From positions 1 through 38,460 of the IMG/VR virus record IMGVR_UViG_3300029142_000015: 38,460 nucleotides of DNA; one strand, given 5' to 3'. Within the stretch, counting starts at the first letter, position 1. Each line of letters starts with the position of its first letter. The notes under the pieces are model-generated. The model was not told where the DNA came from and did no database searches. It saw nothing but the letters and a program-made list of their open reading frames with translations. Of the stretch, positions 1,966 to 38,416 are shown piece by piece. This stretch comes from a virus. Its lineage: Duplodnaviria > Caudoviricetes. A program made the translations under genes and the position numbers.

Positions 1966-3453
1966 TTGTTTGTTAGCGACTATGTACCGCGGGGACTCCC
2001 AGTAGTGCGTGAAGTGCAAACCGGTTATCGTACTAAAGCGGACTTGCTGGCGGAAACAGAAAACCAGTTTCGCATATGGTATGACGAATACGCGAAGCGA
2101 CCACGGCAAGCCGACGAAATACGTTTGCCGATGCCACACCCTCGACAGCGGACCATTATCTACTCGAAGAAACGCTTCAAGGTAATGGTCTGTGGTCGAC
2201 GTTTTGGTAAAACTACCGCAGCGTTGATTGCAGCAGTTCTCCGGGCGAATGCGAAGCCGAATCAAATGATTTACTACGTCGCTCCTACCTACAGACAAGC
2301 TAAGCAGATCGCCTGGGGAATGCTTTTGGATTTCGTTGGAAACGCATACAAGCGCAAAAACGAGCAGGAACTTGTAATTGAGTTCTCCAATGGTTCGAAA
2401 ATTTATTTAAAGGGGGCCGAAAACCCCGACGCTCTACGTGGAGCTTACGTACACCTGGCGATTTTGGACGAATACCAAGACCAACGCCCCGTTGTGTGGG
2501 AACAGATCATACAGCCTATGATCGCCGACACGAAAGGTGACGTTTGGTTTATTGGTACGCCAAAGGGGTTTAATCATTTCCACCAATTATGGAAAGATGC
2601 CTCCGAAGGCAAATTGGGCGCCGACTGGGCCGCCTACCGTTTGACCACATACGACAACCCGCACATACCACGCGAAGAAATTGAACGGGCGCGCAAAACA
2701 ACGGACGAACGTTCGTTTAATCAGGAATATCTCGCGCATTTTGTTCAGTTTTCCGGACTGGTTTACCCACAATTCCAACGGGTAAAGCACGTCCAATTCT
2801 TCGATCATAAGAAAATCGAGGGCATATATTTAACTGGTATTGATTGCGGAGCGGATCACCCAACCGCTGGTATTTTTATTAAAGTAACTTCGGGCGGCAC
2901 GGTTTACGTATGGAACGAGCACTACCAAGCTGACGCCGCTGTAGCCGAACACGCAGAATGCTTGCTGCAGCTAAAAGGTCCTGTACATGTACGTAAATGG
3001 TATATTGACCCTAGCGCCAAACAGTTTGCGAAAGATTTACGCACCCACGGGGTACCAACGGTTCCCGCGGTGAACGATCGACGTTACGGGATTCAAGAAC
3101 TTCGCTCGCTGTTAAAAGCGGGTAAATTAATTGTTCATCCAAAGTGCCAAAATCTTATTTACGAATTTGAGCATCACATCTACAAAGACTCAAAGAAGAA
3201 AGGCAAAGAACGCGGAGACGTAGAAAAGGAGGTAAAGAAAGTAGACGATGACGCGTTGGACGCGCTTCGTTACGCTATTGCGTCGCACTTCAAAGGGCGT
3301 ACTTACGAAGACTTAGACTTAGCTCCACCTATGGACGTGCCTATCGGTGTGAAAACTGCATTTGACAAAGACACCCTCCGCCGCTATACTGTGAGTACGG
3401 GAGGAAACGTACCACAGTATGTTGCTCCAGAATTTCAACACTTAGACCAATGA
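1966..3453 (+). CDS. terL: Terminase large subunit
   Basis: Walker A GRRFGKT, Walker B AILDE, GTP coupling motif, RNase H-like GID...DDDALDALRY; TTG start uncertain. Confidence 0.95.
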   Translation: MFVSDYVPRGLPVVREVQTGYRTKADLLAETENQFRIWYDEYAKRPRQADEIRLPMPHPRQRTIIYSKKRFKVMVCGRRFGKTTAALIAAVLRANAKPNQMIYYVAPTYRQAKQIAWGMLLDFVGNAYKRKNEQELVIEFSNGSKIYLKGAENPDALRGAYVHLAILDEYQDQRPVVWEQIIQPMIADTKGDVWFIGTPKGFNHFHQLWKDASEGKLGADWAAYRLTTYDNPHIPREEIERARKTTDERSFNQEYLAHFVQFSGLVYPQFQRVKHVQFFDHKKIEGIYLTGIDCGADHPTAGIFIKVTSGGTVYVWNEHYQADAAVAEHAECLLQLKGPVHVRKWYIDPSAKQFAKDLRTHGVPTVPAVNDRRYGIQELRSLLKAGKLIVHPKCQNLIYEFEHHIYKDSKKKGKERGDVEKEVKKVDDDALDALRYAIASHFKGRTYEDLDLAPPMDVPIGVKTAFDKDTLRRYTVSTGGNVPQYVAPEFQHLDQ

Positions 3454-3755
3454 TCACTCTAGAACAACTCAAGCCGGTACCACCTTATATTGTCGTAGAG
3501 CCGGTAGATCCAAACGAAGGATCTAATATTGTAATTGCTGCAGAATACCAAGACGCCCCCCAGCGTGCTGTAGTGCGGGCCGTGTGGGACGACACTACGT
3601 TCTACAGCACCGAAACTCCGCAACTTTTGGTAGGGCCGGGCGACGAAGTGCTGCACGCAAAATACGGCGCTGTGGAAATTAATGATTCCGACTTCGCCTT
3701 GCTACATCACGATGACATTTACTGTATTGTCAAAAATGGCAGCGAAACCAAATAA
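3450..3755 (+). CDS. groES: GroES/Cpn10-like co-chaperonin
   Basis: LKP..YIVVEP...NIVI...AVVRAV...VGPGDEVLHAKYGAVEI...LLHHDDIYCIV follows the Cpn10 pattern; ATGA-coupled to TerL. Confidence 0.8.
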   Translation: MITLEQLKPVPPYIVVEPVDPNEGSNIVIAAEYQDAPQRAVVRAVWDDTTFYSTETPQLLVGPGDEVLHAKYGAVEINDSDFALLHHDDIYCIVKNGSETK

Positions 3756-3775: not shown

Positions 3776-4183
3776 ATGGCAACATTCCAAAAAGTCCGGG
3801 CTTTAATCCGTGGCTTGCGTGGCGCACGCGATGTTCGCGATGTGGACGAGAAGGTACAGTCTTTCACTCCCCACGTATGGGACGAGACAATTCAAAAGCA
3901 CGCATACCAAGAATTGGTAAGATCCATGGAAAATGCACCGGCTGCCGTACGGGCCGACCACGCGTGCTCTTCAAACTCAACCGCGCCCAAGCGTTACACA
4001 AAAATGATATTAGACACCGTGAGACGACGGTTACGCCGCATACGGCGCGCTACAAAGTCTGAAGCGGTATACGCGCAGTATGCAGATAAAGAGTTCCGTA
4101 TATGGGTGGATTCACGCACGGGTAAACCTTGCGGGCCAATTCAATTTTACACACCCACCGGGTGGACAAACATAGCGGGGTAG
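3776..4183 (+). CDS. Hypothetical basic protein
   Basis: 135 aa, Arg-rich; its stop codon lies inside the tRNA gene. Confidence 0.6.
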   Translation: MATFQKVRALIRGLRGARDVRDVDEKVQSFTPHVWDETIQKHAYQELVRSMENAPAAVRADHACSSNSTAPKRYTKMILDTVRRRLRRIRRATKSEAVYAQYADKEFRIWVDSRTGKPCGPIQFYTPTGWTNIAG

Positions 4184-4248
4184 AGCAGTGGCAGCTCGTC
4201 GGGCTCATAACCCGGAGGTCGCAGGTTCGAATCCTGCCCCCGCAACCA
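4174..4248 (+). tRNA. Initiator tRNA-fMet (CAT)
   Basis: Full cloverleaf; CAT anticodon; three G-C pairs in anticodon stem; A11-U24; unpaired 1:72 (A:A); encoded CCA. Confidence 0.95.
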
Positions 4249-26371: not shown

Positions 26372-26879
26372 CCTTCAACATTTCTAATACCTCTTCAAGC
26401 ACAGCGACTTGTGCGTGCTTGAAGAACCCAGTGCGAGTGTGGTCTTCACTGGGGCCAGATCCGTGGATACCTTCTTTTGCAAGAGCGATCAGTGACTGTT
26501 CATCATACCCACGAATAATCAGCTCTCGACACGCTTTCGTCATCGCCCCTAATGCATCTAAAGTAGCGCGCAAGCGGCGTTTTTGCGCTGGAGTCGCGGC
26601 TGCGTCAAAGATATCTAATTCGTCACGCATATGCTTCCCAAGCGTACTGTTGGCTTTGATGCGATCCATTGTGTCGAAGAAATTCTTTGCAGCCACAGAG
26701 CTCGCGACGTTAAATTGGCAAGTTCGCCCCGGCTTGGGCTCAACGAGTTCGATGGCTTCATCCTTTCGGTCTGCATCGTCAATTGACATTTGTTGCTCGA
26801 CGATAAGTGAAGCTTGGGCATCGGCAATGTCCTGGAGGATTTGCACCGCCTCTACATCTAGGAAGTGTTGTATGTTCAT
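26364..26879 (-). CDS. Hypothetical protein
   Basis: 171 aa, coupled to neighbours. Confidence 0.7.
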   Translation of the reverse strand: MNIQHFLDVEAVQILQDIADAQASLIVEQQMSIDDADRKDEAIELVEPKPGRTCQFNVASSVAAKNFFDTMDRIKANSTLGKHMRDELDIFDAAATPAQKRRLRATLDALGAMTKACRELIIRGYDEQSLIALAKEGIHGSGPSEDHTRTGFFKHAQVAVLEEVLEMLKDV

Positions 26880-27544
26880 TTTAAAAGTGGGTCAGATATT
26901 AATTCGAAAGCGGCTTCGTGATCATACACGATTGCCTTGAACTTAGCACGCACGCCCGCAGCCCGCTCTACAAAACCTGCCCGGTAACGCGCGATTTGGC
27001 TAAATATTTTTATCGCTGCTTTTGTTTTTAGTGGCACTATACCAGGTGGGTGTTTTTTAATGGTAGCCGGCAAGTCTGGCTTGAAGTCGCCTACCTCCAC
27101 GGTGCTATCGGGCAACACGCTTAGGTCGTCGGCAACACCGTTCCAGTCTTCACCCCAAACCGGCACCTCTGTGGCCAACAACGTAGGGTCCACGTTGTGC
27201 AAGTGTTGCTGTACTTTTTGGTGTTGGTATTCTTTCCAGCAGCCGTATTTGGCTTGTTTGGCGTACTGCACTTTTGGGTGGGATTCCAGGCGCCTTACCA
27301 CGAAGTCCGAAGCTTCGTACACGTCACCGTTACGAGACTCTTTAGGTCGCTCTGGTATACCGTTTTCAAATGCGTCGGTTAAGTGGTGACACAAAAGCCT
27401 TATGTGCTCTGGTATGGACCATCGCCCAGAAATGCGTGCATCGAAAATAGACGCGTAAGTCGTGAACTCATGCGTACCCACGTAGTCGGCACCACGTGGG
27501 CGCTTTAACATACGAATGATTTGTTCGGTATTTTTAAACGACAT
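26876..27544 (-). CDS. PD-(D/E)XK nuclease
   Basis: ATEVPV, G.AD, VGDFKP, QIARY RecB-like motifs. Confidence 0.7.
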   Translation of the reverse strand: MSFKNTEQIIRMLKRPRGADYVGTHEFTTYASIFDARISGRWSIPEHIRLLCHHLTDAFENGIPERPKESRNGDVYEASDFVVRRLESHPKVQYAKQAKYGCWKEYQHQKVQQHLHNVDPTLLATEVPVWGEDWNGVADDLSVLPDSTVEVGDFKPDLPATIKKHPPGIVPLKTKAAIKIFSQIARYRAGFVERAAGVRAKFKAIVYDHEAAFELISDPLLK

Positions 27545-27656
27545 CTACTTGTGCGTCATCGATTAAAAGTTCTTCGGCTAAGAAAGTTTCTAAAGCACGC
27601 GCTACTTCACGCGGTGCAAGTTCACCTTCGGTAAATTGAATGCTAAGGTTAATCAT
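27534..27656 (-). CDS. Acidic 40-aa protein (not in ORF track)
   Basis: MINLSIQFTEGEL...AQVDVV; ATGA coupling upstream, overlap downstream. Confidence 0.5.
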   Translation of the reverse strand: MINLSIQFTEGELAPREVARALETFLAEELLIDDAQVDVV

Positions 27657-27862
27657 AGCACGCCAGCGTTAGGACGTGTGTTGAGCACACGCTGCAGCAA
27701 ATTGCGGCCTTCCATTTCTTTTAGTTGATTTGAAAGGCTACGGCGCTTTGCACGGGCTATGGACACAGAAGTTTCCAAACTGCGTCGGTGCGCGTTTATC
27801 TTCAAAGCCGCCACTAAAAGCTCCGGCTTGTTGAGCTTCTTTAATTCACGATCCTTGTACAT
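27653..27862 (-). CDS. Basic coiled-coil hypothetical protein
   Basis: Likely start MYKDRELKK at 27862, behind a C-rich leader. Confidence 0.6.
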   Translation of the reverse strand: MYKDRELKKLNKPELLVAALKINAHRRSLETSVSIARAKRRSLSNQLKEMEGRNLLQRVLNTRPNAGVL

Positions 27863-27881
27863 GGGGAGTGGGGTGTGGTAA

Positions 27882-28001
27882 TTAAAAGGGGAGGTCGTCG
27901 TAATAGGCAGGGTCATCGGCTGGAGCCGGTGGCTGCTTCAGTCCAGTATTAGGGATCAATCGATCACCTTCACGACGAATATACTGAAATGCGTTTACTT
28001 T
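27882..28001 (-). other. -1 frame extension of the SSB ending in DDLPF
   Basis: From A-AAG at 28001-27998 the -1 frame reads KVNAFQYIRREGDRLIPNTGLKQPPAPADDPAYYDDLPF-stop. Confidence 0.65.
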
Positions 28002-28522
28002 GCGGCCCCTGCGCCCCCGTAAGCTTCATCAACCACGAGTGGTCCAAGCTTTTCGAGAATAGGAGCAGTGTCGCCTGTGAACGGCATTACTGAGTCAATA
28101 GCGTCTCCTAGGGATCCGTCTTTCTTCTCCCAGTTCGTCACTTGCACCGTACAGATTTGTCCGAGTGCTTTTGCCATGTCTGGCTTTGGAACCATTGGGT
28201 CTACACCAACAGCCTTCAAGATTTGACCACTATTAGTCATCTTGGTTTGACCGGCGTGCATGTAACAACTTCGGATGTTACACTTCTTGGTAAGCACTTT
28301 CTTACCAGCTTCGAACTCAGTTCCGTCCAACGCCTTGAGCGGTCCGCCCGTTACGTCTTGAGCTAGTTCAAATTTAAATACTGCAGCGGGCTTAACCTGA
28401 CCTGCGTATTCAGTGGTGCCTTCTTCGATCGCAATGATACGAGCGGCATATAGGCCTTCAGCAAGAGCAACGTACTCGCTAGAGCCGCCTTGCAAAGCCT
28501 CTGTGTTGTCGATTTCCAACAT
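27995..28522 (-). CDS. Single-stranded DNA-binding protein (DUF669/OB-fold-like)
   Basis: ALAEGLYAARIIAIE, FKFE, LGQICTVQV pattern; replication context. Confidence 0.7.
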   Translation of the reverse strand: MLEIDNTEALQGGSSEYVALAEGLYAARIIAIEEGTTEYAGQVKPAAVFKFELAQDVTGGPLKALDGTEFEAGKKVLTKKCNIRSCYMHAGQTKMTNSGQILKAVGVDPMVPKPDMAKALGQICTVQVTNWEKKDGSLGDAIDSVMPFTGDTAPILEKLGPLVVDEAYGGAGAAK

Positions 28523-28612
28523 ATGGAGTGGAGGTTTAAATTATACAGACGCGTGCATTACGAGTACAGACGATGAAGCGGAATTTCGTAACACACACGC
28601 CCACATAATTTC

Positions 28613-28927
28613 TTATGTAGAGCGTTGCTTATTCTGTAAATAGATTTTAAGGATCAAGGAGTACACCGCCAAATCACGTAGAGTGTCGGTGATCGCCTCA
28701 TCCTTAACTTGGGCGTCTGCTTTCAATAGGTTCGAAATGCGGCCCAGTTTGTCTGTCATCCGAACAACGATTCCCTGTTCTACAGAACAAAGTCCGATGT
28801 GGTCAACAATGCGGAAGTTACGAAAGGCATCTTCGAGACCAGCGTAATCCGCGTTTTTGCGCGAAGTTAAATCGAGCATCGCGTCGAGCTCTTGCTTAAA
28901 AGCAGTCTTATATTGTTTTTGATCCAT
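28613..28927 (-). CDS. DUF1599-like nucleotide-modification-associated protein
   Basis: KNADY, RMTDKL.RI.NL, DE.I.DTL.DLA.Y. Confidence 0.75.
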   Translation of the reverse strand: MDQKQYKTAFKQELDAMLDLTSRKNADYAGLEDAFRNFRIVDHIGLCSVEQGIVVRMTDKLGRISNLLKADAQVKDEAITDTLRDLAVYSLILKIYLQNKQRST

Positions 28928-29111
28928 TAGGGAGTGGTTTTAAATCTTTTTCGCGAAAATAGGTTCGCTTTTTACCAGCTATGTGTGAAGCGGATTCTGC
29001 AACCGCGTACATGTATTTACCTTCGGCTGTACACGCAAAAGACGCGACTGTTCCGACTTTACCATCAGGTAAGACAACGCGATCAAACGTTTTGAAACGT
29101 GGTTCAGGCAT
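28908..29111 (-). CDS. Small SH3/KOW-like protein
   Basis: Likely start MPEPRFKTFDRV at 29111; G.V...Y.V...F.E.DL. Confidence 0.6.
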   Translation of the reverse strand: MPEPRFKTFDRVVLPDGKVGTVASFACTAEGKYMYAVAESASHIAGKKRTYFREKDLKPLPNGSKTI

Positions 29112-29145
29112 AGCGTGGTAATTTGGAGTGGAGGGGAGGGCTAGA

Positions 29146-29307
29146 CTAATAGTCCATAGAGCGAACGCCGTGTGAACCGTCATAGCTTGGCGTGCGGTAC
29201 GGATCTTTATTGGCTTGAGCAAAGCCCCACAGAATAAGTACGATCAGAATGAAGATCGCCACGGCTGTTTGGGAATTGCCCTTTTTGGGGTCTTGCTGAT
29301 TAGTCAT
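29146..29307 (-). CDS. Single-pass membrane protein, 53 aa (not in ORF track)
   Basis: MTNQQDPKKGNSQTAVAIFILIVLILWGFAQ...SMDY. Confidence 0.6.
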   Translation of the reverse strand: MTNQQDPKKGNSQTAVAIFILIVLILWGFAQANKDPYRTPSYDGSHGVRSMDY

Positions 29308-29313
29308 GCTTCT

Positions 29314-29342
29314 ATCTTATAGGGTCTAAGCATATAAGTCAA
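29314..29342 (-). promoter_or_regulatory. Internal promoter giving a leaderless transcript
   Basis: TTGACT(29342-37)-17-TAAGAT(29319-14), 6 nt before ATG 29307. Confidence 0.6.
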
Positions 29343-29395
29343 TACTTTTTCTTTTAGGCGTACGGAAAGCACGAAAGTGCAAATTCGAGTCTGTA

Positions 29396-30244
29396 CTAGA
29401 AAGCCCCATAATTAACTTGGTAACAGGATAAACCTTTCTGTCGCCACATTTCTACAACTTGATCACGGTCATCGTACACTGCGATAATATTGTAGCGTGG
29501 ACGTATGTATTCTTCGAACAATTCTTCTTTAATCACCGAATCCTTACGGTTATCGCCTGGTGCACGTAGGTACAGCTCGTCATACGGGATGTTGTGTGTG
29601 GCAAGCCATTCTTGTGTTTCAGGCTTACAAATACCATCGCGTCCGCTTAGGATGATAATTGTATACCCCATTGCTTTTGCGGTTCGAAGGGTGCGGACTA
29701 CGTTGGCGTCAACTGAATCTTCACCTACACGACCCCAGTCGTATGGACCTCGCTTTTGCATGTGTGCTAACGTGCCATCGAGGTCAAATATGTAAGCGTC
29801 TTCTAGGTCCGGATCAAACGTATATTGCTCGGGCGGTGGAGCTAACCATCGGTCGTGCATATCTTTAATAACATGGGCTCCAACCGAACGCTGGCGCTGC
29901 AAGTCACGAGAAACACATTCACCTACACTGGCTTCAAAAAACTTAACGGTCACTCGCGCTTGCCCTTTGACCAAAGCACGAATGTGCGCCTCGTGTTTTG
30001 GGTGTAAATTCGTGTCATCTACTATCACGTTTTTGCCATTTTGCAACGCGTCCAAGATCAAGGTATCGCGCGTCTGTAAGACAAATTTCTCGTTATCTCG
30101 ACTCCATTTGCCGCCATCTAACATGGCACGTAAATCGTCCTTATTTATACGCTTGTATTGTCCGGGGTGTTCTGCTAGTTGCTTCCGAGCCCAGGTTGAT
30201 TTTCCGCTGGCTGGGAGGCCCTTTAGTATGATTACGTTTTTCAC
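29396..30244 (-). CDS. Polynucleotide 5'-kinase/3'-phosphatase (T4 PseT-like)
   Basis: GLPASGKST, INKDDLR, DDTN kinase motifs; DLDGT, SGR, RKD...K, YDDR HAD motifs. Confidence 0.95.
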   Translation of the reverse strand: MKNVIILKGLPASGKSTWARKQLAEHPGQYKRINKDDLRAMLDGGKWSRDNEKFVLQTRDTLILDALQNGKNVIVDDTNLHPKHEAHIRALVKGQARVTVKFFEASVGECVSRDLQRQRSVGAHVIKDMHDRWLAPPPEQYTFDPDLEDAYIFDLDGTLAHMQKRGPYDWGRVGEDSVDANVVRTLRTAKAMGYTIIILSGRDGICKPETQEWLATHNIPYDELYLRAPGDNRKDSVIKEELFEEYIRPRYNIIAVYDDRDQVVEMWRQKGLSCYQVNYGAF

Positions 30245-30480
30245 CAGTTTGGGGGCTTAGATTCAATTACCTCTACTTCTATTTCTTCACCCGCCTTTGC
30301 GGCATCAAAGCCAGATTTTATATATGCAATGATCTCATGGCCGTCTACCAGATCTCGCCCAATGCAGGCATCTTCCGGCTCACCTCCGCCAATTGTCCTG
30401 CCATTCTCCTCATCGCCAATAACGATATAGTGACGGCGTGCATACCAATCATCCTCCCATGTGTAAAGTTTAATTTGCAT
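30241..30480 (-). CDS. Hypothetical acidic protein
   Basis: 79 aa; GEPEDA; GTGA coupling to PNKP. Confidence 0.65.
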   Translation of the reverse strand: MQIKLYTWEDDWYARRHYIVIGDEENGRTIGGGEPEDACIGRDLVDGHEIIAYIKSGFDAAKAGEEIEVEVIESKPPNW

Positions 30481-31105
30481 CTGTAAAGTGTTCTTTAATT
30501 TTTAATAAAATTCTGTGCGCTTTAGCTTTCGCTTCTACACTTGGCGCTAAAGCTACGGACTGCTCTGCGAAGTGCAGTGCTTCGTTGTAACGCCTGGCGT
30601 CGTGAGCCACCACTGCAGAGTCCAACCATATGAGGTGTTCTGCTGGTGCTATTTCACGAGCCTGAGCCAAATACAGTAAACCTCGATCAACCTGACCCAA
30701 GTACGCAGTGGACCACCCCAGGCAACGTAAAAGTTCTGGGTGATTCGGACACGCATGTTCAGACAAATGAAATAAATCAATTGCTGTTTTGTGGTCTCCG
30801 CGAGTCGAATAAAGAAAGCCTAACAGGTACAACGTGTTTGGTGCAGCCGGGTAAAAACCAAGGGCATACAACAGGGCTTTTTCGCAAGCTTCGTGCTGAC
30901 CCAAAGCTAAATAATTGTCACCTAATTCTTCATAGTATTCATACCTTTCATAAAGTGAGTCATAGTGCGACACTAGAAAATCCACTGCTGCCTGGTGTTG
31001 ACCGCGACACTTGAGTAAGTCGGCCTCTTGTAGAAGCAAGTCTGCGGGTTCAGGTGGATGGAAATCATCCCACGGATTGATCGCCTGCACTGCTGTTGAC
31101 ATCAT
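30470..31105 (-). CDS. TPR-repeat protein
   Basis: Several LG..Y...G....A.......P repeats. Confidence 0.8.
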   Translation of the reverse strand: MMSTAVQAINPWDDFHPPEPADLLLQEADLLKCRGQHQAAVDFLVSHYDSLYERYEYYEELGDNYLALGQHEACEKALLYALGFYPAAPNTLYLLGFLYSTRGDHKTAIDLFHLSEHACPNHPELLRCLGWSTAYLGQVDRGLLYLAQAREIAPAEHLIWLDSAVVAHDARRYNEALHFAEQSVALAPSVEAKAKAHRILLKIKEHFTDAN

Positions 31106-31331
31106 ACTTTTCTGCTTTAATAAGCTGTTTGCGCAAATATTGATAAAATGCTTGTTTCAAATAACCTTTCACGCGATCAATGTCGCGTTTTGTGGCTGCG
31201 TCACCGGTGTACGCAAGGAGCGTTCCGGTTGGAAGCCACGGTTTTGCATAAATTTTAACAACATGCTCGACGTCTTTCGCTTCTTGGAAGCGATCAGGTG
31301 AACAATAAACAATTGTGACTGGGTTACTCAT
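31065..31331 (-). CDS. Hypothetical protein
   Basis: 88 aa between ligase and TPR genes. Confidence 0.6.
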   Translation of the reverse strand: MSNPVTIVYCSPDRFQEAKDVEHVVKIYAKPWLPTGTLLAYTGDAATKRDIDRVKGYLKQAFYQYLRKQLIKAEKYDVNSSAGDQSVG

Positions 31332-32223
31332 AAACTACAGAGTTAAAACCTGCTAACAGGTCGTGGAATAAACGGGCTGCTTTTCGCTGACAAACCTTTG
31401 CTAGAGTCTTGAAGTTCAGCGTGCCAACTTTCTTTTGGATCGCCCAAATCTCTTCTTCCAACAGGTCATGGTAAGCTGTGTTAATGACACGGCCGGTGTG
31501 CTCGATACCAACGCCCCCTTCAATCGTAGCGTTAAGCTTTTGCACTACCTTTTTAACGCGTGGTAAGGTCATCCATTTGTTCATGACATAGATTTCCCAG
31601 TAAGAATCACTGTGCTTGTTGTTGCCGCCGAAATTTACAGCGTTGGACTCCTTAAATGATTCGGTGACGATCTTTGCATACTGGTGCGCACCGAACTGGT
31701 TTATAAAGTTTGGATTCTTAAGCACCACGCCTTCGCCGGATTTACCTAGCACCGACTTACCCACGAACTCTTCAAGCTGTTCCGGCGTAGGGTTAGTAAA
31801 GCGCCCATGGTATTCTGGCACGTCAAACGACCATGTTTGCGCAAAAGCATTTACGGCCGGCAGGTCCAACCACGTTTCACCATCGAACACAACGTCAAAC
31901 AAATAGAATTTACTGTACGCACTATCATCGTAGCGTATTGTGTGTGGAACCAACCACTCTCCGTAAAGGCGGGCGGTTGGGTGCTGTGTAAACAAGTCTA
32001 CCAACGTAGAGCTGCGTTCTTGTTGCCATTCGCGGAAGCCTCGAAAGGATTCATCTGGCGGCAAGTGCCTTCGGCGGGAACCGATTTGGATGGCGTCGTT
32101 ACTAAACCAGATTGAGGCGTTAGCACCGTCAATCTTTTCTTGGACGTAAACGTCACCTTCGAGAATGCCCGCCGTTTCGGCTGTACCTAGACGGCGGATC
32201 TTTGGATACTGTTGAAAGTCCAT
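31324..32223 (-). CDS. ATP-dependent RNA ligase, Rnl2-like
   Basis: EKIDGAN (motif I), GSR, LYGEW, FYLFDV, EGVVLK, AK; helical C-terminal domain, no OB fold apparent. Confidence 0.85.
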   Translation of the reverse strand: MDFQQYPKIRRLGTAETAGILEGDVYVQEKIDGANASIWFSNDAIQIGSRRRHLPPDESFRGFREWQQERSSTLVDLFTQHPTARLYGEWLVPHTIRYDDSAYSKFYLFDVVFDGETWLDLPAVNAFAQTWSFDVPEYHGRFTNPTPEQLEEFVGKSVLGKSGEGVVLKNPNFINQFGAHQYAKIVTESFKESNAVNFGGNNKHSDSYWEIYVMNKWMTLPRVKKVVQKLNATIEGGVGIEHTGRVINTAYHDLLEEEIWAIQKKVGTLNFKTLAKVCQRKAARLFHDLLAGFNSVVYE

Positions 32224-32225
32224 GG

Positions 32226-33011
32226 TTAAGCTTCTTTAGCGCAGCATTCAGTTTCTACAGCAGCTACCAAGCCCTCAATTGTTTGGACGAATTTAGGGTG
32301 CTTCATGGCTTCACGCAAAGTTTCTTGCATACCGCCAAATTGTTCGGTCAATGCAGCAATGTACTTGTCACGCTCTGCTTTAAGCGCACCAATTGTGTCG
32401 CTTTGAATTTCGAGCATTATTTGAGTTTCTTCCATGCGTGCGTTTGCAACGGCAAGTTCGGTTGCCTCTTGCTTGAGCTCTTTGCGTAGTTTCACTTCAA
32501 CGTCTTGCTTGAGTTTTTCTTTGCCTTCGGCTACCTTTTCGTCGAAAGCTTCTACACTCTCTTCTAGCTCAATAAGGGCTTCTTCAATAGCCTCTTCACG
32601 CTTATCTAGTTCAGACTCACGCATAACGAAACGGTCGTCCATAGCTGCCTCGCGTTGTTGAAGATCTTCACGGAGTTCTGCAACTTCGTCTTGCTCTACT
32701 TTAAGCTTACGCTTAGACCAAAGTTCTTTTTGAAGTTTATCTATGGCTTTGACAAGGCCCGCACGTTCTGCGGTCATTGCTGACAGCCCTTCGCTGTAAC
32801 GCTTGGTTACCTCTTCGGCGATCCCACGTAGGAACGCATAGCCGTCAGTCACTACTGGCTTAGCTCGGAAAAACGTTTTAACATTTTCAATCCCATCTGG
32901 GGTGTCATCTTCTATTTCCCAAGATACACCTGAATACGCCCAGCGCAATACGTCAGTAACGACGTCATACACCTCGACGCGAGTTGGTTTTTTTTTGACT
33001 TTTTTAGTCAT
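32226..33011 (-). CDS. Coiled-coil protein
   Basis: Likely start MTKKVKKK at 33011; long E/K-rich heptad region. Confidence 0.7.
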   Translation of the reverse strand: MTKKVKKKPTRVEVYDVVTDVLRWAYSGVSWEIEDDTPDGIENVKTFFRAKPVVTDGYAFLRGIAEEVTKRYSEGLSAMTAERAGLVKAIDKLQKELWSKRKLKVEQDEVAELREDLQQREAAMDDRFVMRESELDKREEAIEEALIELEESVEAFDEKVAEGKEKLKQDVEVKLRKELKQEATELAVANARMEETQIMLEIQSDTIGALKAERDKYIAALTEQFGGMQETLREAMKHPKFVQTIEGLVAAVETECCAKEA

Positions 33012-35304
33012 GGTTGTGGAGGTTAATAAATTTTGTGGTTTGGCATCCAGTGCACGATACTTGCAAGCCCCCATTCGACCGGTGGGAGACAAACGCGCTT
33101 GGATTAGAATCATCGTGCCCCGGGAAGGGACAACGTATCGGTGTGGTTTTTTGGTCGTCTTGTGGTAAAGACGAAATGTAAGAAGCTGCGTCGTGGGCTT
33201 GGCCACGAGCGTCGTACAAAGTAAAGTTCGGCATCGTTCTTTCACTAGAAGCTACTCGGCGTTGCAAAGGAGTGCCCGAACCACTTTTGGCCCGAGCTAA
33301 GCGTAAGTTTTCTTCTGCTTGTACTCTTTTCAAAAGTGCTTTGACCGGGAACAGGCGCCCTTCGTTCGTTTGAACGGTACAACCAGGTGCTCCGTAATAA
33401 GTGCGGGCTGCATCCTTACAAGCTGGGTCGCTACCAAAACGTTCGGTCATAGCTTGCATAAACAAGCGGAACTCCGCGCGATCGGTAAATTCATAGTCAC
33501 CATATAAGATGAGCCGAAAGCGGTCGTGCACCACACCATTCTTTTCTTTTTGGTGTGATTTCGTCGTGGCTAAAACATAAGAATACGGTTCGAATTCTTT
33601 AGCAACTTCCGCTAAAGTTGGCCCATCGTCAAAGTCCAAAATGATTAAAGCAGCTCGTTCGAAATTGTCCTGCTTACGCTTTCCATCTTTAAATACACAA
33701 GCGCTGTACAGGTATTCTCCGCGCAACACGGTCAAAAGCTCCGTCCGTCCGTTCACCTCCTGGAAACCTTCGCTTTGCGACGGATCTAAACCAGGGCGAT
33801 AGCTAAAGTAATCCTTTGGAGCTTCGGGCAGTGCGGCCACCGGTTCTTCGTCCAAAATACTATCATCGGCTGTTGCCAGTCTACAGGTATAGAAATCACG
33901 TTTCCGCACTTTGTGGTGCTCTACCACGAGACCCATGCTGCGAGCTTCAGGTGCTACTTCCGACATCATCAAGTCAAACACAGGCTCCTGGAAAGATCGC
34001 TTTGGCAAACCCCGGAATGTGGGCAGATCCATTAAGTCTAGCGCGCTTGCTCCTTTGATCCCCTTTTGCTGCAAAAACGAAATCACCTGATTCGTGTTCG
34101 AGTAAGCAGATTCGTCAAAGAAACGTTTAGCGGATTCAAATGAACGACGCACAATACCGTGTGCTTGTTTTAAGTCCGCAAGCGTAACTACGAAATTACG
34201 GTCCGCATGATTGAAAATAGCCAACAACGTCGCAACCCGTAAAGTTTTACGATCCAGGTCGCTTTGTAGCGCACACATTAAATCTTTGTGTTCACTTGCT
34301 GCAGTTTGATCACGATAAACTTGTAACGCACGGGCAGCACGTTCGCATTCGGCATCATACCAAGTGCGGGCTTCAGGCGTTAAAGTGATGATACGTTCTG
34401 AACCTGGTGTACCTGCGAACTGTTCATGCATCCACTCGGTCAGTTCTGTAATTTGAGCAGAAAATGCTTCAACATCGTCAACCGGAGGTGGGGTGACATT
34501 ACGCAATTGAACTGTTTCGTTTGACTCACGAATCAAGAAACCACGACGGCCAATTGATTTAAGTACAGCGCGCTTGATGTCTTCCTTTTGACGTGAGTCA
34601 GGATGAGCCAAAGTGAAGTATAAAGTAATGCCCATGCCTTTCGAGCCAGGTGTTGCTTGGCCACGATCCTTAATAGATTTAGCGGTGAGTTCGTCGTAAT
34701 CTACCAGCTCCAGCATTCTGTTGTAGAACGACTGCAAATACGCAGCACGCTTCATCAGCGTGAGCTTGTCGCCGTATTCGTCAACACGAATCGTAGGAGC
34801 ACCAAAAGAGAGCGAACCTAAATACGCTCGATCAAACGCAAAACCTTCATAAGACCCGTCGTCCGGGGTGATCATGGAGAGCTCACGTTTACGCGAGTTG
34901 TATTTAGTAATAAGTTTTTTACGTTGCTTTTCGTTCTTCTTTGCGTCGGCCGAGCCTTCGACCACCGGAAATTTCAAGTGCACATCTTTGACGTATTCAT
35001 CGTAACGGCTGCATTCTTGGTCGAACAAATAACCCATTGCCTGACGGAATGGTGAACCAAATACATGCTTTTGCATAAAGCGGTAAGCGGCGTTTTTACC
35101 CGTTCCGGTGGGTGCTTCTACCAGGGTGAGCGTAGAAGGGAATGTTGTTTTGTATGGCCCTTCCTGTACGCGGATACGCCAGTAGTTCACCCAGGTGGAA
35201 ATTAGCGATAGCGCTTGGAGCTCCACCATTGCTGTAGAAGCGGTGGAAGCTCCGGCTACCTGCGACGCGTATTCAACAAGTTGTGTGAAACGATCTTTAT
35301 TCAC
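33004..35304 (-). CDS. Helicase-primase fusion (DUF3987-like ATPase + AEP primase + Zn finger)
   Basis: APTGTGKN and IRVDE; IILDFDD, TTKSH, RFRLIL, D.ACKD.AR; C-terminal CPFPGHDD.NPS...CTGC. Confidence 0.75.
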   Translation of the reverse strand: MNKDRFTQLVEYASQVAGASTASTAMVELQALSLISTWVNYWRIRVQEGPYKTTFPSTLTLVEAPTGTGKNAAYRFMQKHVFGSPFRQAMGYLFDQECSRYDEYVKDVHLKFPVVEGSADAKKNEKQRKKLITKYNSRKRELSMITPDDGSYEGFAFDRAYLGSLSFGAPTIRVDEYGDKLTLMKRAAYLQSFYNRMLELVDYDELTAKSIKDRGQATPGSKGMGITLYFTLAHPDSRQKEDIKRAVLKSIGRRGFLIRESNETVQLRNVTPPPVDDVEAFSAQITELTEWMHEQFAGTPGSERIITLTPEARTWYDAECERAARALQVYRDQTAASEHKDLMCALQSDLDRKTLRVATLLAIFNHADRNFVVTLADLKQAHGIVRRSFESAKRFFDESAYSNTNQVISFLQQKGIKGASALDLMDLPTFRGLPKRSFQEPVFDLMMSEVAPEARSMGLVVEHHKVRKRDFYTCRLATADDSILDEEPVAALPEAPKDYFSYRPGLDPSQSEGFQEVNGRTELLTVLRGEYLYSACVFKDGKRKQDNFERAALIILDFDDGPTLAEVAKEFEPYSYVLATTKSHQKEKNGVVHDRFRLILYGDYEFTDRAEFRLFMQAMTERFGSDPACKDAARTYYGAPGCTVQTNEGRLFPVKALLKRVQAEENLRLARAKSGSGTPLQRRVASSERTMPNFTLYDARGQAHDAASYISSLPQDDQKTTPIRCPFPGHDDSNPSAFVSHRSNGGLQVSCTGCQTTKFINLHNHD

Positions 35305-35965: not shown

Positions 35966-36252
35966 TGTGGTAAGTATTGAGTTATGCGCTTGGCTAAGTC
36001 GCTCAAGCCGTCGGCTAAATTGGTGAGAGCGTCACCTTGTACAGCACGCTCTACGAGTCGGTTTTCCATACGTTGGCCGTCGCGTTTGGCGGCCAACACT
36101 TCGGTCTGTACATCTACGAGCAGTTCCAAGGTTTGTTCTAGTTCCTCGGTTCCACCAGTGCCGTCGAGCACCGAACCAACCAAGCGGGCAGCTTCACCCG
36201 CCCACTGGTTTATATTATTGTGCTTGTCGCAGATATAAGTCCCATTAATCAT
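35962..36252 (-). CDS. Hypothetical protein
   Basis: 96 aa, helical. Confidence 0.65.
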   Translation of the reverse strand: MINGTYICDKHNNINQWAGEAARLVGSVLDGTGGTEELEQTLELLVDVQTEVLAAKRDGQRMENRLVERAVQGDALTNLADGLSDLAKRITQYLPQ

Positions 36253-37846
36253 CGTTTTTTGGCGCCGGGTCAGTGATAGTAGCGTGGGTCGTTACCAACG
36301 TGGCCACGGCGGTAACCGCCGCTTCGAGAGCGGTTGTGGTTACCAAAGCAGGGTCAGCAATACCAGCGGCAATAGCGTCAGGTATGTGCGTGTGCGTGTT
36401 GGCGTCGTAAGTTGCGGGAGCACCGTTGGCCTGCACTTGGTCAAGCACTGTTGTGGCGTCACGTCCTGCGTTGCGCACAATGCATTTCATTGGCTCTTCC
36501 AATACACGTACCAAAATATTAACGGCAACAGGGTCAAGCGTAGGGGGGGCGTCGGTGCGGAGCTTAGCGGCAACATGCGCCAAGGCAGCTCCACCTCCGG
36601 GCAGCACGCCACTACGAAGTGCAGCAGCGGTTGCGTTAATCGCGTCTTCCACTCGTAGCTTTCGCTCCAAGCGGGCAACTTCGGTGGTGGCACCCACACG
36701 AACTACTCCAACTCCTGATTCCAACTTGGCAGCCCGGTTCACGAGTGCGTTGCGTTGGTCTTCGGTGAGATCGCTAGTCTGGTCGTCGGCTTCGGTTCGA
36801 AGTTGCGTAACGTGCGCAGCTAGAGATTCAGAGTCGGCAGCTCCTACCACTGTTGTCTTCGTGCGGGTAGCGACCACTTTGGATACTTTACCCAGGTAGG
36901 CGCGTTCTAGCAAAGCAGCATCGTTAAGGTCTACTCCGTCGCTGGGACCAATGATTTGCGCGCCGGTGAGGGCTGCAAGGTCTGCGAAGTCGTCGGCGCT
37001 AGTAACGCGAACAACAAGCGAAGTGAATTTACCTTGTACGGTATTAACGGCTGCAGTTGCTAGCGCGCCGTCTCGCATATTCTTACAAAACACAACTAGG
37101 CGCGGTTCCCCTTTCTGGCCCAGGTGATTCATAAGCTTAAGCAAAGATTTCGGATCAGCTAAGTCACGATCAATCACCAAACAAGGGATGTCGGTAAACA
37201 AAGCTTCATTGGTTCGCGGCTGGTTCACAAAGTGAGGTAGCAACCAACCAAAGGGTAAAGTGATTCCTTCAATGGTGTCCACAGTGACACCGGGCTGCGC
37301 GTCGTCCTGGAGCGTTACCGCTGCGTCAGGACCAAGGCGTTCGTAAAGCTCGGCCAGCTGGGTAGCCAACGCGTCGTCTCCTCCGGAACTAATACGGGCA
37401 ACGGCGCGGAGTAGTTCCGTGTTGCCCTGTACGGGCACAGCTACATCATTTAGCAGCTCCAAAACGTGTGCCAAAACCAGTTCCAGTTGGAGTTTGAGTT
37501 GCACGGGATTAGCGTCCTGGAGCTCAACTTGAAGTAAAGCAGCGTCCAAAAGTGCAGCGGCTAGTACCGTGGCGGTTGTGGTTCCGTCTCCGGCGGTTTC
37601 GTTTGCACGAGACGCAACCTGTTTAATGAATTGAGCAGCCAAGTCTTCCGTTGGGTCTTCGAGGGTGATGGACTGAGCAATAGTTACCCCGTCGTTTGTT
37701 ACGAGAGGCGGTTTGCCGTAGCCCTGAGAAGCTATAGCAACGTTGCGGCCGCGGGGGCCCATTGTTGCGGCGACTACAGAGGCTAGGGTGCGTACACCGG
37801 TTTGAATTGAGTGGCGGGCGTTGGACCCGGTTTGAATGTTGTGCAT
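36245..37846 (-). CDS. groEL: Group I chaperonin GroEL
   Basis: TMGPRGRNV, TNDGVTIA, AGDGTTTATVLA, KLRVEDAINAT.AA, PGGG, GIADP; no GGM tail. Confidence 0.95.
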   Translation of the reverse strand: MHNIQTGSNARHSIQTGVRTLASVVAATMGPRGRNVAIASQGYGKPPLVTNDGVTIAQSITLEDPTEDLAAQFIKQVASRANETAGDGTTTATVLAAALLDAALLQVELQDANPVQLKLQLELVLAHVLELLNDVAVPVQGNTELLRAVARISSGGDDALATQLAELYERLGPDAAVTLQDDAQPGVTVDTIEGITLPFGWLLPHFVNQPRTNEALFTDIPCLVIDRDLADPKSLLKLMNHLGQKGEPRLVVFCKNMRDGALATAAVNTVQGKFTSLVVRVTSADDFADLAALTGAQIIGPSDGVDLNDAALLERAYLGKVSKVVATRTKTTVVGAADSESLAAHVTQLRTEADDQTSDLTEDQRNALVNRAAKLESGVGVVRVGATTEVARLERKLRVEDAINATAAALRSGVLPGGGAALAHVAAKLRTDAPPTLDPVAVNILVRVLEEPMKCIVRNAGRDATTVLDQVQANGAPATYDANTHTHIPDAIAAGIADPALVTTTALEAAVTAVATLVTTHATITDPAPKNDD

Positions 37847-38153: not shown

Positions 38154-38416
38154 CATTTATAAATGCATAAATGCGTGCGTTAGACGCTTGACGTGCGCAG
38201 GTAAATGTTGTGTAATTTCATAATTGGTGCGCTTATGCGTTGTTTGAAAATCGTCGATTTTGGCCATCATAAATGCACGATTTTGGCCAAAAAAGCGTTT
38301 ATAAATGTAAAAGTGCATTTATGGCGCGTAAAAATGCATTTTTAAAATGGCTTGTGTAAGCCGTTAATCGGTATAAATGTTATAAATGTTATAAATGCAT
38401 ATACGAACATTTATAA
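38154..38416. repeat. TATAAATG/CATTTATA repeat array (right part of candidate origin)
   Basis: Palindrome CATTTATAAATG 38154-65; TTTATAAATG 38298-307; TATAAATG x3 at 38372-97; CATTTATAA 38408-16; CGATTTTGGCCA x2 at 38255 and 38278. Confidence 0.75.

Follow-up and report, generated by a model that had tools for sequence, protein, structure and literature searches.

The acidic tips of bacterial SSB proteins bind replication and repair enzymes, and the question raised by the locus described here is how a phage SSB-like protein could come by such a tip when the tip is encoded outside its reading frame. The window analysed is the whole linear record of an uncultured aquatic phage (38,460 nt; CheckV completeness 40%), which occurs in aquatic metagenome runs, all of one study; among the runs containing the record no RNA data set is listed.

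An acidic tail in the −1 frame of an SSB-like gene

Re-translation of the ORF at 28522-27995 on the minus strand gave GGG GCC GCA AAG TAA as its last codons, which confirms the observation, made in an earlier sequence-only reading, that the SSB-like protein ends at GCA AAG TAA without an acidic tail. The tail is missing in frame 0 and present in frame −1. A −1 slip at A-AAG (28001-27998), as that reading had proposed, does open a 39-codon frame, which begins with Lys (AAA, 28001), continues as VNAFQYIRREGDRLIPNTGLKQPPAPADDPAYYDDLPF and reaches its stop at 27884-27882 with the C-terminal end YYDDLPF. The predicted lengths of the two isoforms also hold on re-translation, with 175 aa for the tail-less protein, the length under which it is catalogued in the sequence collection, and 213 aa for the fused product.

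The −1 frame is closed upstream by TGA TGA at 28031-28026, which restricts any shift to the interval 28025-27998. Within this interval A_AAG is the only recognised shift motif, and at the junction it forms part of an NNA_AAG hexamer in the 0 frame (C_GCA_AAG, 28004-27998). The frame contains no ATG and a single TTG (27959), so the earlier account of its starts and of its upstream TGA was correct. The −1 ORF is open from the site, closed above it, coding-like and without a usual start of its own, one TTG being left. Coordinates are given in Table 1.

Table 1. Features of the SSB-like gene, the candidate shift site and the out-of-frame tail, with the tRNA gene of the record (positions in the window).
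Feature	Position	Strand	Basis or remark
0-frame ORF, 175 aa, predicted OB-fold SSB-like protein, end GAGAAK-stop	27995..28522	−	ORF translation, profile and structure searches
Candidate shift site C_GCA_AAG (NNA_AAG hexamer)	27998..28004	−	sequence; motif class as in the available part of PMC5009743
A_AAG core	28001-27998	−	sequence
0-frame stop TAA, immediately 3' of the shift codon	27995..27997	−	sequence
−1 frame tail: Lys + 38 codons, end PADDPAYYDDLPF-stop, coding-like codon use	27882..28001	−	translation, codon model
DDLPF tip	27885..27899	−	translation
TGA TGA, upstream closure of the −1 frame	28026..28031	−	8 codons above the Lys codon
Stem S1 (27988-81/27949-42) and inner hairpin 27969-27951, candidate 3' stimulator	27942..27988	−	local folds
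Helix S2, 9 bp (27978-70/27903-895)	27895..27978	−	pseudoknot with S1 or alternative nested fold; post hoc
G5 run, SD-like, 12 nt 5' of A_AAG, −8.6 kcal/mol	28014..28018	−	sequence, anti-SD pairing energy
SD-like octamer (27969-62) and TTG (27959-57), candidate rival start, 25-aa peptide	27957..27969	−	inner hairpin
tRNA-Met (CAT) gene	4174-4248	+	overlaps end of ORF 3776-4183

Contigs from four runs (X1 to X4) were aligned onto 26800-29400 with a variant threshold of 5%. None of the four runs contained a substitution or indel at 5% or more, and the site is crossed without any gap or mismatch by two single contigs, one of 565 nt (X3) and one of 592 nt (X4); the four runs come from a single study, X1 may be the source of the record, and X3 and X4 contain just the amplified piece described below. 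The one-base assembly error in the G or A runs that the sequence-only reading had wished to exclude was not found, and the frame break is real. The region is a PCR-amplified piece, around 100-fold over-amplified: in runs X1 and X2 the depth over 27846-28431, which covers the SSB gene, is about 100-fold that of the flanks. A transcript signal was considered for this peak and rejected, since its loose ends carry the amplification tag. At both borders the genome sequence agrees with the 3' end of that tag, which identifies the peak as an amplification artefact that carries no information on expression.

The identity of the protein was approached through structure and profile searches. The AlphaFold model of the ORF product (pLDDT 82.8, pTM 0.79) was compared with solved structures, and OB folds lead both searches: the best match is PrgE (Foldseek E 3e-4; VIA-align Z 8.2, rmsd 3.3, 102 aligned); further OB folds, some of them SSBs, come behind it with weak scores. 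According to the available part of PMC11137577, PrgE of plasmid pCF10 binds ssDNA and is likely of phage origin, and no recoding of it is described there; it has 15% identity to the window protein, and the shared fold alone shows no function. In the profile searches Pfam DUF669 (PF05037) scored 17.6 bits (E 0.0044) and did not reach its gathering cut-off of 21, one of the ten members of the PF05037 alignment matched the window protein, and a match to the NCBIfam NGO0469 family lay far below cut-off. The first match by features in the Atlas (0.95) is a cluster of which 18% of the members have DUF669, and the three best structural clusters there are of 238, 218 and 211 aa. On the strength of the modelled fold and these matches we describe the protein as a DUF669-like OB-fold protein and do not file it as a member of the family. 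It is likely an SSB, with ssDNA binding suggested by fold and gene context; of the SSB-like identity given earlier, the OB fold and the likeness to DUF669 stand, and the Pfam score stays under the cut-off.

Relatives, coding signal and the age of the stop

A profile-library search returned 11 matches, two of which, P0009 (3074 aa) and P0014 (744 aa), were dropped as long repetitive proteins with multi-stretch matches; with four proteins added from other searches, the set comprises 13 relatives. The two closest, P0002 (60%) and P0005 (36%), carry no tail and end in DEAK-stop and APAK-stop, respectively, with differing spacing between the domain and the Ala-Lys end. Ala-Lys-stop is therefore an end of 2/13 relatives, both the closest ones and both known at the protein level, and its background rate is 3/593 long ORF ends in the background loci. 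A last dipeptide that is kept while the spacer changes is the trace expected of a codon-level signal GCA AAR stop, and we infer such a signal here from the protein ends. Conservation among homologues, the comparison to which the earlier reading had pointed, thus appears at the level of protein, for the Ala-Lys stop of the two closest relatives. The DNA locus of the relatives did not turn up in the viral contigs, metagenome contigs and GTDB genomes searched, and no GenBank phage carrying P0005 or P0002 was found. The family locus was likewise found in 0/45 records, out of 80 capsid-related ones, in the alignment A2 search, which had no positive control and many fragments.

An in-frame PF/PW motif near the C-terminus is present in 7/13 relatives (P0003, P0004, P0007, P0010, P0013, P0015 and P0016), and 4/13 (P0006, P0008, P0011 and P0012) have neither this motif nor the Ala-Lys end, which implies that not every member of the family has the PF tip. 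These four may have out-of-frame tails hidden behind their stops. The tail of the window protein has no similarity to the long tail of P0010.

In the tree, the window protein (P0001) and P0002 are sisters with a support of 99/99, around 0.7 substitutions per site apart. Grouping P0001, P0002 and P0005 together gives a p-AU of 0.48, with common ancestry neither shown nor rejected, and the three Ala-Lys ends are not independent of each other if they were inherited. Given the distance between P0001 and P0002, the stop appears old, yet the tail frame is intact; were the stop as old as the split of these two proteins, an untranslated tail would have decayed by now.

We also assessed how much of the tail could be due to chance. 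The motif D[LI]PF-stop has a single occurrence in the six frames of the window, [LI]PF-stop closes 0/607 of the −1 frames that follow long ORFs in the capsid regions of other phages, and [DE][DE][LI]PF-stop occurs once per 1,858,766 six-frame codons. Open −1 frames of equal length are common in the same 607-frame background (222/607). The DDLPF-stop motif is the unusual part of the tail and lies above chance, and the length of the open frame is within chance.

A codon model trained on 16 genes of the window scores the 38 tail codons as in-frame sequence, with 76/166 in-frame windows lower and 0/70 stop-free off-frame windows as high. The score of the 13 codons that separate the site from the TTG is reached by 2/645 stop-free off-frame windows, and that of the 21 codons between the site and the second Lys codon by 3/274 off-frame windows. 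The tail frame is coding-like from the shift site onward, which agrees with a −1 slip as well as with a base lost recently, and argues against both a bypass and a peptide started at the TTG.

A recent loss of one base from an ancestor with a continuous 213-aa ORF, of which the tail would be an untranslated or incidentally rescued remnant, is the alternative that agrees with this coding signal, given that a fresh remnant would score as coding too. One A lost from a run of four would yield the exact sequence seen, seven of the 13 relatives have continuous tails, and the DNA evidence is all from one study. On the other hand, P0002 and P0005, the closest relatives, end at this Ala-Lys too, an end with a background of 3/593, so that the same accident or a coincidence would be needed in them, and no continuous allele at 5% or more was present in X1-X4. 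We regard this explanation as unlikely.

Candidate shift signals and possible routes to the tail

The available sections of PMC5009743 describe A_AAG as the minimal site for a −1 shift, and report relatively low shifting at NNA_AAG in cdd and IS1222, an influence of the first codon, a single tRNA-Lys in about half of bacteria, and SD stimulators of −1 shifts located 9-14 nt upstream. The statement in the sequence-only reading that A-AAG is a known bacterial −1 shift motif agrees with cdd and IS1222 as treated in those sections of PMC5009743. The level of slipping at NNA_AAG depends on the tRNA-Lys set of the host.

Downstream of the site, the 8-bp stem with an inner hairpin that had been noted earlier (S1) is present in the sequence; it begins 9 nt past the site, or 6 nt when two extra pairs are counted. 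S1 alone is not above chance (z −0.79 and −1.20, with 45/200 and 27/200 shuffles as good), and 137/1000 synonymous-codon nulls are as good. In its most stable fold the 116-nt tail forms S2 and not S1, and the structure starts around 20 nt from the site; S2 pairs the Arg-Arg codons with the Tyr-Asp-Asp codons. This whole-tail fold stands out against dinucleotide shuffles (z −2.84, 1/200 as good), and its energy is matched by 50/1000 synonymous nulls and 231/640 genome windows. A pseudoknot of S1 and S2 with such strength and placement was obtained in 4/1000 synonymous nulls and 20/640 genome windows, in a test devised post hoc. The S1+S2 pseudoknot, formed with tail-coding sequence, is a possible alternative stimulator, likewise proposed post hoc. 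No Rfam match at E up to 1 was obtained in 27600-28700, and no terminator-like site follows the SSB stop on the minus strand.

Upstream of the site, the value of the G5 run depends on how the host starts its genes. The gene starts of the phage avoid SD-like sequence, 2/43 reaching −4.4 kcal/mol against 31% of random 17-mers (standard anti-SD), and they show A at −3 in 23/43 cases and leaders rich in A and C. This avoidance implies that the host probably works without SD pairing and makes the G5 run doubtful as a stimulator. According to the available part of PMC10798248, prfB shifting apparently proceeds without SD in hosts without SD pairing. Several minus-strand genes share a C-rich leader, for example CCACTCC before 28927, 28522 and 27862.

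A −1 shift at A_AAG is, in our best reading of these data, the best route to the tail, and we consider it probable that the gene uses a programmed −1 frameshift at an NNA_AAG site of the cdd/IS1222 type to produce 175-aa and 213-aa forms. In the proposed mechanism, the adjacent UAA and a 3' structure (S1, or possibly the S1+S2 pseudoknot) would slow the ribosome at the last sense codon, where tRNA-Lys would re-pair from AAG to AAA. Most ribosomes would terminate and release the 175-aa tail-less coat protein, and a minority would shift and make the 213-aa form with the DDLPF tip, which, by analogy with bacterial SSB, would dock host or phage replication and repair enzymes. If the tip does dock these enzymes, a fixed minority of tailed subunits would set the number of tips on the DNA-bound SSB array. 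The tuning of host-partner recruitment by two isoforms, suggested in the sequence-only reading, may thus be envisaged on the same analogy. A fuller version is tentative and we hold it to be rather doubtful: a deeply diverged DUF669-like SSB lineage would keep a weak, stop-abutting GCA_AAG slip in a non-SD host, with a pseudoknot built partly from the DDLPF tail codons, would dose a minority of tips in this way, and would be one of many independent inventions in phages.

Further cases were sought by two pattern scans of viral contigs, each restricted to a 30-nt range of tail lengths and to a single stop codon. The scan for GCA-AAR-TAA followed 75-105 nt later by a DLPF-type stop yielded 109 loci, 78 of them distinct, and 0/78 with the SSB layout; that for AAAG-TAA followed 80-110 nt later by a DDLPF-type stop yielded at least 120 loci of around 290 estimated, and 0/110 distinct ones with the layout. 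Locus L121, which has a long 0 frame and a closed tail frame, was rejected as a second case, being a DUF2213 gene followed by another gene, and is taken as chance. A frameshifted phage SSB tail was not found in the accessible literature searched.

Besides base loss, other routes to the tail were weighed against the −1 shift. An SD-like sequence that the earlier reading had missed, 6 nt upstream of the internal TTG, was tested as the start of a separate 25-aa peptide (TTG 27959) that would mimic the host SSB tip in trans. Its pairing is strong (−9.2 kcal/mol in the −20..−4 window) and well spaced, but the starts of this phage avoid such sequence (2/43 against 31% of random 17-mers), the SD-like octamer and the TTG are buried in a hairpin in the computed folds, the 13 codons above the TTG are coding-like (2/645) and the conserved Ala-Lys-stop would be left without explanation; this route is disfavoured and we judge it very improbable.

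A bypass of the T4 gene 60 type, with take-off at AAG 28000 while the stop is in the A site and landing at AAG 27938 past S1, would give ...GAAK-QPPAPADDPAYYDDLPF, a product of 192 aa. The codons at take-off and landing match, the landing codon being the one further Lys codon that the tail frame contains, the stop TAA (27997) lies 3' of the take-off, a stem lies within the gap and the resumed sequence resembles a typical linker. However, the skipped segment is stop-free and coding-like in the tail frame (3/274) and is thus not the non-coding gap that a bypass calls for, an Ala before the Lys would not be required, and no take-off stem is evident in the folds, so that a bypass is also very improbable here.

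Transcriptional slippage, in which one base added to a run of G or A close to the ORF end would yield the tailed protein from an edited mRNA, could draw on the G5, G4 and A3 runs of the shift interval. Runs of such size are short for slippage of RNA polymerase, and no counterpart of the G runs is evident in the protein ends of the relatives; we give this route only a slender chance. Finally, an assembly or sequencing error, for which one could cite a heavily amplified PCR piece from one study, is largely refuted and almost certainly not the explanation, given the lack of indels in 4/4 runs, the two unbroken contigs over the site and relatives from a different collection that end alike.

Known systems and genomic setting

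A likeness in function is found in E. coli dnaX, a replication gene whose tau and gamma products differ in their partner-binding C-terminus, much as the two products of the window gene would; dnaX carries the stronger heptamer A_AAA_AAG and its shift shortens the protein. In contrast, the shift in the window would lengthen the protein, and at lower efficiency. Both share the A_AAG core, and dnaX has a 5' SD and a 3' structure, as stated in the available part of PMC5009743. The site itself resembles the NNA_AAG class represented by Bacillus subtilis cdd (A_CGA_AAG) and IS1222 (G_CGA_AAG), where a single tRNA-Lys moves from AAG to AAA, as it would here, and the cdd shift yields a C-terminally extended product like the one proposed (available sections of PMC5009743). 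The window site differs in its first codon, GCA, in the stop directly 3' of AAG and in the doubtful role of an SD stimulator. Its extension bears the functional motif of the family, whereas the shifting in cdd is termed incidental in the same review, as far as the available sections of PMC5009743 go.

Acidic tails are described for DUF669 proteins in the available part of PMC4889955, and the available part of PMC13687109 reports prophage DUF669 proteins with DDDIPF tips, which are proposed as mimics of the bacterial SSB tip. The predicted OB fold of the window protein is shared with the DUF669 and N4-like phage SSBs, including Gp63 of Healer, and their acidic flexible tail, described in the accessible text of these two papers, has its counterpart in the −1 frame of the window gene; the word "frameshift" has 0 occurrences in their main texts. 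Unlike the DUF669 SSBs, the window protein lies below the Pfam cut-off of 21 and has its tail out of frame, and unlike in Healer, no Gp64-like AAA recombinase is seen beside its gene: none is named among the neighbours scanned, several of which are without family, in a record that may be incomplete.

Known phage frameshifts are mostly those of tail chaperones and capsid proteins. The frameshifts in phage tail assembly chaperone and capsid genes likewise give two products from one gene at a set ratio (available part of PMC10885494), and they concern virion-assembly genes, unlike the SSB gene here; "SSB" and "single-stranded" have 0 occurrences in the main text of PMC10885494. The window gene is most likely a variant of a known recoding type applied to an SSB tail, of which no published case was found within the literature searched. 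If true, a docking tail made optional by frameshifting would be a simple control, in a cassette of around 150 nt, of the number of partner-binding tips on coated DNA, and gene callers would record such proteins as tail-less. It would also be relevant to the number of tails that an SSB array needs, a question still open, and to why phage SSBs are toxic to the host, as they can be according to the available part of PMC13687109.

Protein family scans assign genes for terminase, portal and capsid proteins to the plus strand; the minus strand carries a block that includes genes for a GroEL-like and a primase-like protein, an RNA ligase, a polynucleotide kinase and a resolvase. By our own gene calls, the tail occupies a 132-nt gap, which ranks second in size among the 28 gaps of this block. 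The family scans, of 35 ORFs in one set and 13 window sequences in another, named no DNA polymerase, though many of the proteins are without family and the record is rated 40% complete; the statement of the sequence-only reading that the phage has no polymerase of its own holds for these proteins. The sole tRNA in the record is tRNA-Met, and a host search found the GroEL-like protein around 34% identical to every match.

The GroEL-like gene (36245-37846, minus strand, 533 aa) and a GroES-like gene (3450-3755, plus strand, 101 aa) are widely separated and on opposite strands, the latter directly 3' of the terminase gene in a record of just 38 kb. A second record, L004 (G001; 23,488 nt), encodes an identical capsid protein and, judged by its length and offset, stops short of the SSB gene. 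AT-rich short direct repeats occupy 27-106 at the left end, with a 19-nt unit in exact copies at 27 and 88, and a repeat pair is found at 38248-38289 at the right end, possibly an origin or packaging region; of the 21 direct-repeat families, the 20 largest included no terminal repeat. The primase-like ORF (766 aa) at 33004-35304 on the minus strand overlaps the neighbouring ORF at 32226-33245 on the same strand by 242 nt, the latter being 339 aa long when counted from its first possible start. Next to this pair, the minus-strand cluster at 29396-32223 encodes a polynucleotide kinase, a TPR protein and an RNA ligase, likely an RNA repair module.
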